Source: an uncultured Candidatus Bathyarchaeia archaeon (GTDB lineage Archaea > Thermoproteota > Bathyarchaeia > TCS64). Taken from it: a stretch of DNA of 42,327 nt. Shown piece by piece: positions 286 through 34,006 of this stretch. The notes under the pieces are model-generated. The model did no database searches. It saw only the letters and a program-made list of their open reading frames with translations, and was not told the origin of the DNA. Within the stretch, counting starts at the first letter, position 1; each line of letters starts with the position of its first letter. Position numbers and translations under genes: made by a program. The stretch covers positions 1 to 42,327 of the forward strand of contig CAZVMT010000002.1 of NCBI GenBank assembly GCA_964628765.1, given 5' to 3'.

Positions 286-1491
286 TTAATTAGCCTTTGC
301 CTTGCCTCTGGGGATTGCGTTATTAATCGAGCCTCCAGGCTTGCCCTCTTCAACTATTTCCTCATCATCTAATAAGCCGGTACTACCTTCCTTTAGTTCT
401 AATTTGCCGCCGCCTGCTATGTGCCGCGCTATTGCTAAATTCTCGGCTCTGGTCGGTTCGGCTTTAGTGGCTTTGAGTTTTTCTTCCCTTCTCTTTCTCT
501 CGCCTAAAATTAACTTCTCCTTACTACCCATCCACCAATCCCAAATATCTATAGCCTGTGATTTGGTTAATTTGCCCGGGTCCATTGCAGGTGTCATTTT
601 GCCGGGTGCTTTGATATCTGCTTTGGTTAATAAATGGCTATGAAGGAATCCTAATGATATAACGTGCAATTTTTCATTTTTAATACTATTTTCACATTTA
701 GGACACTTAAAGCCATATACCCTAATACCACAATCTTCACAAACAACCTCGCCATAAATTTGTTTCATCTGTATTTCACTAGGACGGTTGTTAGTTTCTG
801 GTGATATTGCTTTTTCTGTTACTGTTACAACTTCCGCTTCCTGTCCATTGCCCCCATTGTCTTTGTTGTTATGAGTAGTGGTTTTTTCATTCACTAAATA
901 TTCTTCCGGTAAATCCTCAACGTCCTGGGTAAATAATTCTGACAAACTACCTACTAATAAAGCGGCGTCTACTTCTGATCTCTTTTTAGCCATTTTCAAT
1001 ATAGTGTTAGCAATAGAACATATATCTTCATTTTCAACTCTATATTGTTTATAATCGCCATATTTACCGCTTTTTACTCTATATACTAAATCCTCTTTCT
1101 TTATATTATTAGGTAATTTTTTTTCACTTACCCATCTATATCTATACTTATCCTCTTTGGAACTGCATAGACCTATACCTTGACATATTAGATTTTCACC
1201 TGCCCACAAATTCCACCTTAACTCAAACTGAAAAAACTCCTTTTCCCAATCTTTGGTCTCGTCTAAAATATCAAAGGTAGAACGTAACTTACCCAACATA
1301 AATATTTTTTCAGCTCCTGATTTATATAATGTTGGTTTAGATGTTCCAGGAATTATCCCGTAATCTTTACCTTCTTTTAAATTTTCTTGAACCAATTTTT
1401 GCCATTGAGTTATTTTTTGCATAGTTTCTTTAAAAGTAGTAATATCAGCTTGATCAATTATTGATAAACTATTAACTTCATTCATTATCAT
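286..1491 (-). CDS. putative recombination (ssDNA-annealing-type) protein with an internal zinc ribbon
   Basis: 401-aa ORF in the same co-directional gene run as the PD-(D/E)XK nuclease at 1923..2594, two small ORFs away. The N-terminal motif KPTLYKSGAEKI resembles motifs I recall from phage recombinases, but the family is not identified. Contains CEDCG...CPKCEN. Confidence 0.35.
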   Translation of the reverse strand: MIMNEVNSLSIIDQADITTFKETMQKITQWQKLVQENLKEGKDYGIIPGTSKPTLYKSGAEKIFMLGKLRSTFDILDETKDWEKEFFQFELRWNLWAGENLICQGIGLCSSKEDKYRYRWVSEKKLPNNIKKEDLVYRVKSGKYGDYKQYRVENEDICSIANTILKMAKKRSEVDAALLVGSLSELFTQDVEDLPEEYLVNEKTTTHNNKDNGGNGQEAEVVTVTEKAISPETNNRPSEIQMKQIYGEVVCEDCGIRVYGFKCPKCENSIKNEKLHVISLGFLHSHLLTKADIKAPGKMTPAMDPGKLTKSQAIDIWDWWMGSKEKLILGERKRREEKLKATKAEPTRAENLAIARHIAGGGKLELKEGSTGLLDDEEIVEEGKPGGSINNAIPRGKAKAN

Positions 1492-3771: not shown

Positions 3772-3792
3772 AAGATACGCCTCCTTTTTTAC

Positions 3793-3974
3793 AAGCCTCC
3801 GTTTAGGTCCTTGAGTTAGGAAGCAAAGCCTAAATCCCTAACACAACCTTGCGGAGGCTTGATTTATATTTGCCTGCCCTGACAGGATTCCCCACCCTGT
3901 ACCTGTTTCGTTGTTCTACCCAGATTAGCCCCCCAGCCACAACCTTGACTATCTTTCAAGCCACAGGGCAGGCA
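3793..3974 (-). ncRNA. candidate structured RNA or cis-regulatory leader with two domains
   Basis: 11-bp stem TGCCTGCCCTG/CAGGGCAGGCA (3871-3881 with 3964-3974) enclosing three sub-hairpins. A second 9-bp stem AAGCCTCCG/CGGAGGCTT (3793-3801 with 3852-3860) encloses duplicated TTAGG/CCTAA pairs. The 234-nt gap is GC-enriched in a packed AT-rich genome. Confidence 0.45.
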
Positions 3975-4005
3975 TGATTACAAAATAAAAAAAGCCCGAA
4001 CACAT

Positions 4006-4512
4006 CTACCTTAAACATGGTAAACATTCGGACTTTAAAATTTTTGATCCTTTAGAATGATTTTCTTCAGGCGTAATCAATCGTAAATTCTCTAAACCCC
4101 AGCATTCCTGAAATTCATAATCAGTGGGTTCTGAATAATTAAAAACTGAAATAGGCATAATATGATCGAGTTCGAGTTTTCCCTCTAAATAATCATTCCA
4201 TATATAACCTTTTGGTAAAGTTTCCCTTAAATGTTTTTTTAAATCTATAAGCGTATATCCAACATAAGATTCCCATTGGTAACCATTCTTATCATTTAAA
4301 ATACAAAACCTTATAATCCGATACATTCTTTTGGTAAGATTAAATTTTTTCTCATTCCAATATTTTTTAAAATAATAACCGTTATAATATTCTTTATTTT
4401 GCTGATAATAAATCTTGTTTTGTCCATCTTTTTTTGATTTATTTTTTTTGTTATATTCCTTACGATATTTTCTTAAGTGTTCTTGATTATTTTTTATCCA
4501 ATCTTGTTGCAT
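4006..4512 (-). CDS. HNH homing-type endonuclease
   Basis: LELDHIMPISVFNY...ENLRLITPEENHSKGSK (H-N-H core). The N-terminus is Lys/Tyr-rich with Y..N.E repeats, as in phage HNH proteins. Confidence 0.8.
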   Translation of the reverse strand: MQQDWIKNNQEHLRKYRKEYNKKNKSKKDGQNKIYYQQNKEYYNGYYFKKYWNEKKFNLTKRMYRIIRFCILNDKNGYQWESYVGYTLIDLKKHLRETLPKGYIWNDYLEGKLELDHIMPISVFNYSEPTDYEFQECWGLENLRLITPEENHSKGSKILKSECLPCLR

Positions 4513-4657: not shown

Positions 4658-4840
4658 TTATTTATTATCTTCTAAAAACTTAACAATATTAGCGATACTT
4701 GCATGGTTTTTGGGGACTGTCTTACTTTTTTTCCATCTCATATATGTGGCATGGTGAACTTTAAGTATAGCAGCCATCATTGTATCAGAATAGTGCTTGT
4801 TTTTTTGAACTTCGATTAACATTCTTATTGCTTTTTTCAT
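4658..4840 (-). CDS. Cro/Xre-like helix-turn-helix regulator
   Basis: MKKAIRMLIEVQKNKHYSDTMMAAILKVHHATYMRWKK... is an HTH-like stretch. AGGAGG lies 7 nt before ATG 4840 and a consensus promoter lies upstream. Confidence 0.55.
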   Translation of the reverse strand: MKKAIRMLIEVQKNKHYSDTMMAAILKVHHATYMRWKKSKTVPKNHASIANIVKFLEDNK

Positions 4841-4862: not shown

Positions 4863-4890
4863 AGTATAAACCTTTTTTTGCAGTTGTCAA
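4863..4890 (-). promoter_or_regulatory. sigma70-type promoter
   Basis: On the minus strand: TTGACA (4890-4885), 16 nt, TATACT (4868-4863), about 20 nt upstream of the SD of 4658..4840. Confidence 0.6.
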
Positions 4891-9502: not shown

Positions 9503-9523
9503 AATTAACCTCCTTTATTTTGA

Positions 9524-9756
9524 CCACTCCACCTATCTTGGTTGTTTCCCTTCACCAAAGTTCCAGTAACAACTAACATGTATCTTCAAGAAGAGCCCAG
9601 GGGCTCTTATCAGCAGAGTGGAACGTTTAAGAACTAATTGCCTGTTTTCCCACCCTCACAGGCTCGTCTGCTATAGTCAGACACCCTACCACATCTAATA
9701 AATACAAGCACAGGCTCATACTCTTGTGTGGTATTACTTATACCAATTACTATAGA
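9524..9756 (-). ncRNA. structured noncoding segment between the tRNA-Thr and the next gene
   Basis: On the minus strand: GGTAT/ATACC, GTCTG/CAGAC, GCCTGT/ACAGGC (loop GAGGGTGGGAAA), AAGAGCC/GGCTCTT and GTTGTT/AACAAC hairpins. CCACTC/GAGTGG (9616-9621 with 9524-9529) closes a 3-way junction. Confidence 0.4.
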
Positions 9757-9830
9757 TGGAGCTGACAGTTTGAATTGAACAAACATCTACTGTTTACAAG
9801 ACAGCAGCTCTGCCGTTGAGCTATGCCAGC
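9757..9830 (-). tRNA. tRNA-Thr (anticodon UGU) with encoded CCA
   Basis: Folded by hand. Acceptor GCTGGCA/TGTCAGC, D arm GCTC-AACGGCA-GAGC, anticodon arm GCTGT-CTTGTAA-ACAGT, T arm GTTTG-TTCAATT-CAAAC. U8, A14, GG, U33 and TTCAA are present, with discriminator T then CCA. Confidence 0.9.
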
Positions 9831-9834
9831 AATA

Positions 9835-9916
9835 TGGTGGAGGTGGTGACTTTCGCCACGTTTCCGAGAATAGGGTAGCAACGTAGTTGTGCCTACTTCG
9901 GTCGATTTACACCCCC
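9835..9916 (-). ncRNA. tRNA-like element (7-bp acceptor-type stem ending ACCA) lacking canonical D/T arms
   Basis: GGGGGTG...CACCTCC-ACCA closing stem. Inside are a long irregular hairpin and a GTGGC-GAAA-GTCAC (GNRA) hairpin. It lies 4 nt upstream of the tRNA-Thr 5' end. Confidence 0.35.
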
Positions 9917-9920
9917 ATAT

Positions 9921-10745
9921 CTAAACGCTTGCGTGTATATCTTTGCCCTTCTCTGGTTCACCATTTAATCTGACCCTTGTAGATCCCGTTGCTGGTTTTA
10001 TATACATTCCTTTTAAACTATAACTTGCATATCCCATGTAACTACCTGTTGCTACAAAACATTCCTGTTGTTCTATTAATTTTTTATTGTGCATATCGGG
10101 ATATATATACTTTTCTTTTAATGCTATTTTGCTATGAACATGAGCGCCAAAATATATATCAGCTAAGGCCATACTCTTCAATGACATAATCCGATTTACT
10201 TTTCCACCCTGTGTCCTGCCTCCGCCTATCACATGATGAAGAAAAGCAGAATAACAAATGGGTCGTCTCTTATCCATTCTCTTATTCCCCCGGCTTTCAC
10301 CTACATTTAAAAATAAATAAGCGCACCAATTAGGGAAATATTCTATATCTAAAAACTTTGATAAATCCTGTATAGGACTATCACCAACTGCTTTTAGTAT
10401 GCGTTCTTCGTGGTTACCCTCAAAGCAACCTAATATCTTATCTTTTATCGGTCTTAATTCTTCAGTAATAAAGTCTTTTGCTTTTGCTAAATTAAATTGG
10501 TTATCGTGTACATTGCCTATTGATGTTTTTATGGTAGCGTCAAAAACATCTCCCATTAAAAATGTGTACGCTTCAGGTGTGTCTTTTATCCACTTAACCA
10601 TATCTCTAAATTTTTTAGTTGCATATACTCCTTCGGGTAATTCTCCTCCTAAACCTGATTTATCCCCACAATGAAAATCACCAATGGGTATAAAATAGAT
10701 GTGGTCAAATTCTTGTGGGAATACAATACTTTTAGTCTTTATCAA
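9921..10745 (-). CDS. calcineurin-like metallophosphoesterase
   Basis: IGDFHCG (GDxH), MGDVFDA (GDxxD), EGNHEE (GNHE) and GAHVH motifs, in order. Confidence 0.8.
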   Translation of the reverse strand: MIKTKSIVFPQEFDHIYFIPIGDFHCGDKSGLGGELPEGVYATKKFRDMVKWIKDTPEAYTFLMGDVFDATIKTSIGNVHDNQFNLAKAKDFITEELRPIKDKILGCFEGNHEERILKAVGDSPIQDLSKFLDIEYFPNWCAYLFLNVGESRGNKRMDKRRPICYSAFLHHVIGGGRTQGGKVNRIMSLKSMALADIYFGAHVHSKIALKEKYIYPDMHNKKLIEQQECFVATGSYMGYASYSLKGMYIKPATGSTRVRLNGEPEKGKDIHASV

Positions 10746-32859: not shown

Positions 32860-32897
32860 TGTAAATCATATCCTATCTCCCCCGAGAATTTGTTATT

Positions 32898-33098
32898 CTA
32901 TTCTGGTCTAATCTGTAACGAAAGTTTAAAAACATAATTGGTATGTCTTAAGGCTACATTTTGAAGAGGTTTCGTCATTTCGTCACTCATTCTTTCCCAT
33001 ATATTTATCGCCATATATTTTAGTTCGTCTTTATCGTATTCATTACAGTCAAATTTAAAATTATGTTGGAAAACAATACCTTTTTTATCTATTAACAT
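32898..33098 (-). CDS. hypothetical protein
   Basis: 66-aa ORF preceded by an A9-G8 homopolymer SD region. Confidence 0.45.
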   Translation of the reverse strand: MLIDKKGIVFQHNFKFDCNEYDKDELKYMAINIWERMSDEMTKPLQNVALRHTNYVFKLSLQIRPE

Positions 33099-33117
33099 TT
33101 CTCCCCCCCCTTTTTTT

Positions 33118-33288
33118 TTAATTCCTCGATACCCTTCGGCTATTTGCTATCAGTTCAGCGGACACGTCCATTGCCTGGATAGTTTTGACTTTGATGATAC
33201 AATCTAAATTATTTGCAAAGTCTTCAATAGATTTTGAATGTTTACCAAATATATATTCTTCTAACTCTTTTAATAACTTATTGTACAT
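33118..33288 (-). CDS. hypothetical protein (56 aa), not in the ORF track
   Basis: MYNKLLKELEEYIFGKHSKSIEDFANNLDC... AAGGAGGAAAAT lies upstream. Confidence 0.5.
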   Translation of the reverse strand: MYNKLLKELEEYIFGKHSKSIEDFANNLDCIIKVKTIQAMDVSAELIANSRRVSRN

Positions 33289-33299
33289 ATTTTCCTCCT

Positions 33300-33443
33300 T
33301 TATTTTCCTTTATAATTGGCATATAGTGCCTTCAGATACGCCTTTGCCCTTGCGCGACTCATCGGCTTCTTATTCTTCTTCTTGCCTGTATTCTGGTTAA
33401 CTACATTACATTTGTCGTCTTTGCCTGTTATCTTCCAGGGCAT
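33300..33443 (-). CDS. small basic protein (47 aa), not in the ORF track
   Basis: MPWKITGKDDKCNVVNQNTGKKKNKKPMSRARAKAYLKALYANYKGK. GAGGAGG lies upstream. It resembles a widespread small phage protein type ending ..A..L.ALYAN. Confidence 0.5.
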   Translation of the reverse strand: MPWKITGKDDKCNVVNQNTGKKKNKKPMSRARAKAYLKALYANYKGK

Positions 33444-33586
33444 GGTGTGTCCTCCTCTTCCCAAAACCCACACATTTCTTTACCTTTTTCTATTGCGGTT
33501 ACTCCATCTTTAATTTTTTCATTTAAACAAGTTATTCTCCACTTATTATCACAATAATATTTACAATCAACACAATCTTTATCCAT
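33428..33586 (-). CDS. small Cys-rich protein (52 aa), not in the ORF track
   Basis: MDKDCVDCKYYCDNKWRITCLNEKIKDG... TAATG overlap with the upstream stop and GGAGGGATA upstream. Confidence 0.45.
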   Translation of the reverse strand: MDKDCVDCKYYCDNKWRITCLNEKIKDGVTAIEKGKEMCGFWEEEDTPCPGR

Positions 33587-33804
33587 TATCCCTCCATCTC
33601 CTCCGTCCCTACACTGTCACGGTATAGCGGGTTGTCCTCTTTATATATCGGTATCGGTGCGTTCTGGTCGCCTACATAGCCCATCTTAATCTTTTTCATA
33701 TCTGATAAAAAATAGCAACCATCGTAAGTATGATAAGCATTTTTCGTTATTTTTATCCCAAAATTACTTTTAAGAAATCTAATAAAATCCTGAACTTTTA
33801 CCAT
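33586..33804 (-). CDS. hypothetical protein
   Basis: 72-aa ORF with AAAGGGGGGAAAG upstream. Confidence 0.5.
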   Translation of the reverse strand: MVKVQDFIRFLKSNFGIKITKNAYHTYDGCYFLSDMKKIKMGYVGDQNAPIPIYKEDNPLYRDSVGTEEMEG

Positions 33805-33822
33805 CTTTCCCCCCTTTATACT

Positions 33823-33996
33823 TTATGGTATATAAAAATAACGGATTGAATAATATATTGATTTTATTTTATTTATTAATGTTCTGTTTTTAAATGGAAT
33901 CCACTTTGGTTCTGGATATCTAAAAGCATTATTGGTTCTTATTTGCTCTACTATAGACCACCAATGTCTATCTGCTTCTTCCCATGTTTCACTCAT
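33823..33996 (-). CDS. hypothetical protein (start moved to internal ATG)
   Basis: AAGGGGG lies 5 nt before ATG 33996 (MSETWEEADRHWW...). The longer form overlaps the TerL 3' end. Confidence 0.45.
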   Translation of the reverse strand: MSETWEEADRHWWSIVEQIRTNNAFRYPEPKWIPFKNRTLINKIKSIYYSIRYFYIP

Positions 33997-34006
33997 ACAT
34001 TCCCCC

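Follow-up and report, generated by a model that had tools for sequence, protein, structure and literature searches.

In lambda-type phages the boxB hairpin of the nut site consists of a short stem that is capped by a purine pentaloop of the form G-N-R-N-A, the nut site itself being located between promoter and terminator. The tRNA cluster of phage T4 holds small stable RNAs, i.e., species 1 and 2. G-rich single strands which pair with the 3' NCCA ends of tRNAs are found in the UGGN bulge of the T-box and in the P15 loop of RNase P. Next to these single cases, surveys of phages have already reported many tRNA-like candidates and leader structures (PMC10690425).

The window considered here, i.e., the whole stretch of DNA that was analysed, is a contig of 42.3 kb, which lies within a 3.0-Mb, 335-contig genome bin (MAG) and is the genome of an uncultured tailed phage from a salt marsh; two sequencing runs were found to hold it, both of them of salt-marsh metagenome DNA. 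The word AGGGTGGGRAA occurs in exactly two copies within the window, both on the minus strand and each between inverted repeats, namely AGGGTGGGGAA at 3888-3898 in locus A and AGGGTGGGAAA at 9646-9656 in locus B. The copy of locus A belongs to arm P3 (3882-3900, minus strand), whose 7-bp stem ACAGGGU/AUCCUGU (3894-3900 with 3882-3888) carries the pentaloop GGGGA (3889-3893). That of locus B belongs to the third hairpin (also P3; 9640-9663, minus strand) of a 114-nt, three-hairpin RNA located directly 3' of a tRNA-Thr gene (module B; 9636-9749, minus strand), and here a 6-bp stem GCCUGU/ACAGGC encloses the 12-nt loop GAGGGUGGGAAA.

Comparison of the two hairpins with the described systems revealed partial likenesses in each case. 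The GGGGA loop on the 7-bp stem of locus A fits the G-N-R-N-A form of boxB, is invariant in three lineages and resides in the leader of a one-strand block of small phage genes. This likeness is confined to locus A, the B-type loop of 12 nt being unlike boxB. The locus A element follows terminators, with the nearest strong promoter at 4890-4863, a context that would not suit a nut site, and a scan of 39 proteins brought up no N-like family. The likeness of module B to T4 species 1 and 2 is one of position, i.e., it is a structured non-tRNA RNA which adjoins a phage tRNA gene, and it is probably released from the same precursor as the tRNA-Thr. Like the T-box bulge and the P15 loop, the hairpin tips hold UGGG or GGUGG, which are complementary to the UCCA/CCACC of acceptor 3' ends, and module B has genes for a tRNA and for an ACCA-ended RNA as neighbours; unlike them, the tips are part of neither architecture and yield no corresponding Rfam match, the pairing being hand-drawn only. 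Finally, P3 of locus A recalls the T arm of tRNAs, as it is the 3'-most arm, abutting the 3' strand of an acceptor-like closing stem, and as its invariant core GGU-GGG-GAAUC resembles, by our own judgement, GGUUCGAAUCC. A T arm has 5 bp and a 7-nt loop of the UUCRANY type, from which the P3 hairpins differ, having 7 bp and 5 nt in locus A and 6 bp and 12 nt in module B. By analogy, P3 of locus A may be the T-arm counterpart of a tRNA-like RNA, albeit one that fails the tRNA tests: with the tRNA model RF00005 (threshold 29 bits) nothing was obtained at 3860-3990 or 9625-9756 up to an E of 10, the tRNA-Thr (9760-9830 in this search) alone scoring in the window, and ARAGORN identified no tRNA in the framed elements described below. 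A search of Rfam 15 at permissive thresholds, which included the isolated modules, gave noise only and no meaningful match.

Genomic setting of the two loci

All convincing genes of the window locate to the minus strand, whereby the replication genes (41-37 kb) are followed by those for the terminase (35.4-34.0 kb), the major head protein (29.0-27.8 kb), the endolysin (11.5-10.9 kb) and the exonuclease (10.7-9.9 kb), after which small ORFs continue along this strand for about 10 kb. Loci A and B are the two large gene-free stretches of this small-ORF region. Locus A (3772-4005, minus strand) is positioned between the terminator of an HNH gene (4006-4512), which matches PHROG 'endonuclease VII', and the gene for a 60-aa protein. 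Locus B (9503-9920) comprises the ACCA-ended element, the tRNA-Thr gene and then about 250 nt up to the next gene. A near-consensus promoter (TTGACA, 16 nt, TATACT) was seen at 4863-4890 (minus strand), ahead of a small helix-turn-helix ORF, and is probably the promoter of this gene block. In L018-L021, TTGACA and an A/T-rich word which we read as -10-like stand ahead of a homologous-looking small ORF, this TTGACA site preceding the gene for the 60-aa protein by about 250 nt. Elsewhere in the window, from the head-tail adaptor to the terminase (32860-34006), neither strand lists an ORF of at least 80 aa.

The tRNA-Thr(UGU) gene (9757-9830, minus strand) was identified with ARAGORN, scores 64.9 bits in Rfam and lies immediately 5' of module B, and the same tRNA-Thr precedes the variant of module B in the related locus L039. 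The ACCA-ended element (9835-9916, minus strand; GGGGGUG...CACCUCCACCA) appears, in our own reading of its letters, to resemble the tRNA-like domain of tmRNA. Homologs of this element with a tmRNA-like 5' end (GGGGG(U/C)G...CCUCCACCA) bring the number of lineages which carry it to four, the window included; they locate upstream of the tRNA-Thr/module B position in L008 (about 950-1017, minus strand), L039 (4544-4651) and L043 (3694-3778). The copy of L039 possesses the canonical T arm GGGTTCGATTCCC, and L043 has kept the element although both the tRNA-Thr and module B are missing there.

Homologs of the loci were sought widely. BLAST searches with both loci gave no match among 50,697 phage records and none among 70 genomes of the MAG's family, and locus A was not found in the IMG/VR relatives G071 and G072. 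Scans of IMG/VR for the two hairpins as drawn in an earlier note on this DNA returned 0 matches and 1 match (L008), respectively, and nothing specific on either the motif or tRNA-like RNAs of phages came up in the literature. A relative of the 401-aa gene, L017, starts where its contig ends and thus provides no upstream region.

Conserved helices around the shared word

The earlier note had described one G-rich loop, held unpaired on both loci by stems with exchanged strands. Its sequence statements stand for both sites, as does the placement of the two copies at the tips of conserved RNA hairpins within structured non-coding modules, but the structure drawn for locus A and the idea that the motif is unpaired in both hairpins do not. 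In locus A, the ACAGG (3902-3906, minus strand) and the CCTGT (3882-3886) do flank the copy as reported; their pairing, an alternative register with the distal ACAGG as its 5' strand, was found in 73% of the alignment cells, which is no better than in shuffled or slid controls, and was therefore rejected as a conserved stem. The P3 helix, on the other hand, is 100% paired in the alignment of the window with L026 and L039 and shows 4 compensatory pairs, as compared to 33-48% paired for slid controls. It is also part of the minimum-free-energy fold of locus A, for which a z of -4.1 was obtained. The motif extends in P3 from the 5' stem strand through the loop to a single nucleotide of the 3' strand, and since three lineages support ACAGGGU/AUCCUGU, half of the assumed loop motif is in fact stem.

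P3 is the 3'-most of three arms in a larger framed element (3872-3973, minus strand), which is delimited by an outer 10-bp stem of GCCUGCCCUG (3964-3973) and CAGGGCAGGC (3872-3881). Downstream of this outer stem AAAUA follows and then a ribosome-binding site, and the near-invariant stem would enclose a tRNA-like set of arms in locus A. For the 60-aa protein encoded downstream, 19 homologs were found, and a single scan of metagenomes with their alignment yielded 26 loci. Of these 26 homologous loci, 1 (L026) has a copy of the motif with at most 2 mismatches no more than 300 nt ahead of the gene for the 60-aa protein, while L039 has the variant AGGTGGGGAA further upstream of that gene. The G-rich arm is kept in three lineages only, i.e., in the window, in L026 (2156-2260) and in L039 (7464-7639); a remnant of it was seen in L030.

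For locus B the hairpin GCCTGT-GAGGGTGGGAAA-ACAGGC was confirmed in the sequence. Folding of locus B as a whole is no better than that of shuffles (z = -0.6). Module B is conserved in the IMG/VR contig 3300033145_000606 (L008/L014). Upstream of its P3 hairpin it consists of P1 (9687-9733, minus strand), which has a CUGU tip, and P2 (9665-9683, minus strand), which has the loop ACUAUAG. As compared to L014, none of the 29 pairs is lost; P1 and P2 together show 4 changes that are compensatory and 6 that are one-sided. P3 with its flanks is the sole 27-nt stretch which is unchanged in L014/L008, about 19% of the columns differing elsewhere. Being invariant, P3 provides elevated sequence conservation instead of covariation. 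A covariance model built from these two close copies scores the window with 140.8 and L014 with 140.7 bits.

A diverged copy of module B follows the homologous tRNA-Thr in L039 (4732-4822), those of L044 and L045 being identical to it. It shares the 5' word AAUUGG. Its P1 is short and has CAGU as the tip, in its P2 the identical loop ACUAUAG sits on a different stem, and a third hairpin is GCAGU-UGGUGGGG-ACUGC. This copy escaped the covariance model of the window and L014, and its three-hairpin fold lies 5 kcal/mol above the minimum-free-energy fold. The earlier note had proposed covariation of the stems as a check and absence from homologous loci as a refutation. For the former, the stem proposed for locus A turned out not to be conserved and that of locus B to be invariant towards L014 and different in L039. 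Absence was encountered in part, given the single motif-bearing locus among the 26 and the lack of module B in the relatives L007 and L043. When IMG/VR and GTDB genomes were searched with module-B patterns that leave out the hairpin, the three known lineages only were recovered; pattern matches in L009-L011 and L046-L049 were dismissed as chance matches, most of them in coding sequence. A riboswitch-like attenuator was likewise rejected, as the terminator-like hairpin after module B is conserved neither in L014 nor in L039, and so was a closing stem AAUUG/CAAUU, which would have turned module B into a four-way junction and is absent in L014.

Some repeats were noted in the same region. The 9-mer GAGCCTGTG is present twice in locus B, at the tip of P1 (9708-9716, minus strand) and on the 5' side of P3 (9657-9665, minus strand), and in L014 the variant A(A/G)CCTGTG is repeated likewise. 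Downstream of module B in L008, CTCTGGCTGTTA stands 3 times in tandem and AT-rich words (TTACACATATT...) are repeated, at about 570-620 and 400-520 (minus strand) within a 700-nt gene-free stretch, which may be an origin or iteron region.

Proposed common descent of the two copies and rival readings

The reading which we favour, at a probability of about one half, is that the two AGGGTGGGRAA copies are related by descent and do not represent one loop on exchanged stems. When long gaps are made cheap, the B hairpin aligns to the whole framed element of locus A in three collinear blocks, CCTGTG, AGGGTGGGRAA and CAGGCAA(A/T)TA, of which CCTGTG is the end of the 5' strand of the frame, the second derives from P3 and the third (CAGGCAAAT) is the end of the 3' strand of the frame together with its tail. 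Against the A element of the window such an alignment was reached in 0 of 500 shuffles, and against L026b P was 0.002; for the B copy of L014, 0 of 500 shuffles reached it against both A elements (window and L026b). This collinearity does not support the view of the earlier note that a structural module rather than a simple sequence duplication is at hand, and the strand-swapped stems which it described are not supported either, AGGGU being the 5' stem strand in locus A and the proposed stem lacking conservation. Under stricter gap costs AAUCCUGUCAGGG-CAGGCAAAU of locus B aligns to AAGCCUGUGAGGG[UGGGAAAA]CAGGCAAAU where the A element ends on its 3' side (P=0.001 with the copy of L014, 0.023 with that of the window). 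A weak match of the module-B covariance model in L030 (E=0.08) joins the 5' word UAAUUGGUAUAAU to the remnant of an A-type P3 and the 3' strand of the frame. These P values are generous, because the motif was chosen before the tests, and the independent extra signal is essentially one 9-mer, CAGGCAAAU, just after the hairpin; as each hairpin type is present in only three lineages, all of these statistics are thin.

If related by descent, the hairpin of locus B would be a collapsed copy, i.e., a paralogue, of the framed element, although the change may also have run in the direction of an expansion. The stem GCCUGU/ACAGGC with its tail AAUU (AAAU in L014) would correspond to the frame of locus A instead of to a reversed inner stem of it, and the 12-nt loop to the 5' half of P3 plus its loop. 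The appearance of a swap arises because frame and P3 consist of the palindromic words CCUG and CAGG, and because the 3' strand of P3 in locus A (CCUGU) runs directly into the frame (CAGGG). It is most likely as RNA that both hairpins would act, serving as structural arms of small RNAs or leaders which would be co-transcribed, and probably processed, in the small-gene region of the phage.

Chance has to be weighed against common descent, namely that unrelated G-rich hairpins of GC-enriched non-coding regions happened on the same 11-mer. The earlier observation that plus-strand cccaccct (CCCACCCT) is restricted to the two sites was borne out by a search of the window; at least 2 matches of it occur in 17 of 100 shuffles. 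When the two loci are shuffled by dinucleotides, 41% of the shuffles leave them with a common 11-mer, 1 mismatch being allowed (mean 0.75 pairs), and the real loci have two such 11-mers in common, the second one being the ribosome-binding site. With 41% (A) and 53% (B) of the 11-mers locating to some loop of at most 16 nt closed by at least 5 possible pairs, a common word that is also placed at a hairpin tip is expected by chance at about 0.15. Given these shuffle and hairpin-tip values, the window alone makes no case, and within it the shared word is not beyond chance. The occurrence of the word elsewhere agrees with such a coincidence: the 3-Mb MAG contains 6 exact copies of the motif as compared to 3 of the reversed control, and copies with one mismatch are found at 10200 and 15508 of the window, inside coding sequence. 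Nevertheless, coincidence is rather improbable as an explanation, as the collinear similarity of the flanks goes beyond what shuffles reach and as the core of the word was found again in both modules of a second lineage. A Chi-like DNA site was rejected on account of the 6 copies per 3 Mb.

Beyond the question of origin, the GGUGGGRA tip might be a common recognition element by which one partner binds both RNAs, a possibility which we regard as tentative and on the whole unlikely. Candidate partners are an RNA-binding protein of phage or host or an RNA which carries UCCACC, e.g., the tmRNA-like RNA with its ...CUCCACCA 3' end or acceptor ends of the tRNA-Ala type. Every A-type arm (window, L026, L039) and every B-type hairpin (window, L014, L039) contains the 8-nt core GGUGGGRA, and as L039 carries it in both module types (at 4796 and 7614), a shared recognition role is possible. 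Covariation affects 4 of the 7 stem pairs of the A-type arms, in which GGUGGGGAAUC does not vary, and the B hairpin with its flanks is the only unchanged 27-nt stretch. The B-type loop of L039 (UGGUGGGG) resides on an unrelated stem that is unlike the frame, which is more in keeping with a loop under selection than with simple inheritance. In a list of C-rich words the sole non-coding CCACC/UCCACC words on the transcribed strand belong to the 3' strand of the tmRNA-like element, with which a speculative hand pairing gives 6 bp for the loops of the window and 8 bp for those of L039. The complementary word, however, sits inside an acceptor stem. It further speaks against recognition that GGU is base-paired in the A-type arms, so that the presentations differ, half-paired in A and fully looped in B, and that the motif is missing from most homologous loci as well as from L043, which keeps the tmRNA-like element. 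Among the 39 scanned proteins no RNA-binding protein was recognised, and the exact B loop does not recur as a hairpin loop in IMG/VR: a 16-mer of it gave 7 matches there, of which only L008 has a comparable hairpin loop, the word forming a stem strand in L050. Reading the tips as T-loop pentanucleotides was given up, as the copies are inconsistent.

It is quite improbable, and less to be expected than coincidence, that the palindromes of frame and B hairpin act as DNA, i.e., as recombination or homing boundaries or as protein-binding sites, with the motif riding along. The region is rich in HNH endonuclease genes, one of which (4006-4512) abuts the site in the window, and HNH-type coding sequence was recognised upstream in L038, L039, L041, L042 and L043 by our own reading of motifs. 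The strands of the frame are nearly identical in 13 elements with unrelated interiors, and L028, L040 and L041 possess 'empty' sites. Yet the compensatory changes in P3 of locus A and in P1 and P2 of module B show selection on RNA pairing, and every element belongs to the transcribed strand, where a terminator precedes it and a ribosome-binding site follows.

A near-constant frame with unrelated interiors

By itself the shared motif is of little weight. It is confined to uncultured phages from salt marshes, a small group, and common ancestry is a sufficient explanation for it. Its value is that of a marker, which connects module B behind the tRNA-Thr with the framed leader of locus A. It also exposes a constant stem with exchangeable structured-RNA cargo at one genomic site. 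This constant frame around exchangeable RNA cargo in locus A is more unusual than the shared motif. Besides locus A, 12 distinct elements have its outer stem in almost the same form, ATCATGCCTGCCCTG ... CAGGGCAGGCAAATA, followed by a ribosome-binding site. The frame is a near-invariant 10-12-bp inverted repeat, TGCCTGCCCTG ... CAGGGCAGGCA, between terminator and ribosome-binding site, and its interiors, of 58-345 nt, are unrelated. Next to the element of the window, it was found in L022 (3672-3826), L025 (108-177), L026 (1651-1759 and 2156-2260), L027 (7671-7796), L029 (1409-1507), L030 (2474-2830), L031 (1481-1557 and 8073-8150), L033 (902-1018), L036 (95-162) and L039 (7464-7639). At the empty sites the terminator passes straight into the ribosome-binding site. 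As the frame surrounds so many unrelated interiors, this region must exchange and delete sequence readily, and the frame has the look of an unchanging holder into which different structured RNAs are placed as cargo, or else of a boundary for recombination or processing.

Canonical tRNA T-arm words were seen in the interiors of L026 1651-1759 (GGTTCGATTCC) and L027 7671-7796 (GGTTCAAATCC). ARAGORN found no tRNA in these two elements, and their interiors appear to be tRNA-like fragments carried as cargo. The interior of L030 2474-2830 holds a ribosome-binding site and a small ORF (start ATGGATAAAGAG...) instead of folded arms and terminates in the truncated copy GAGGGGAATCCTGT of the G-rich arm.

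A far-reaching and very improbable extension would treat the frame as a holder for swapped small RNAs (tRNA-like arms, T-arm fragments, a small ORF), with the end hairpin of module B as its minimal form and the GGUGGGRA tip docking to the ...UCCACCA 3' end of the phage tmRNA-like RNA or of host tRNA-Ala or tmRNA. If such docking were true, it would tie the modules to the control of tRNA or of ribosome-rescue RNA during infection. More generally, were the tip a binding site, these phages would represent a compact and mutable system for the recognition of phage small RNAs.

Frame-like words were also noticed outside the position of locus A. The pair GCCTGT ... CAGG(C) surrounds about 55 nt in the region 4990-5080 of L039 (GAGCCTGTAAC...AGCAGGCAAC), about 20 nt upstream of a ribosome-binding site, and at 4020-4085 of L043, where about 100 nt more of structured sequence follow.
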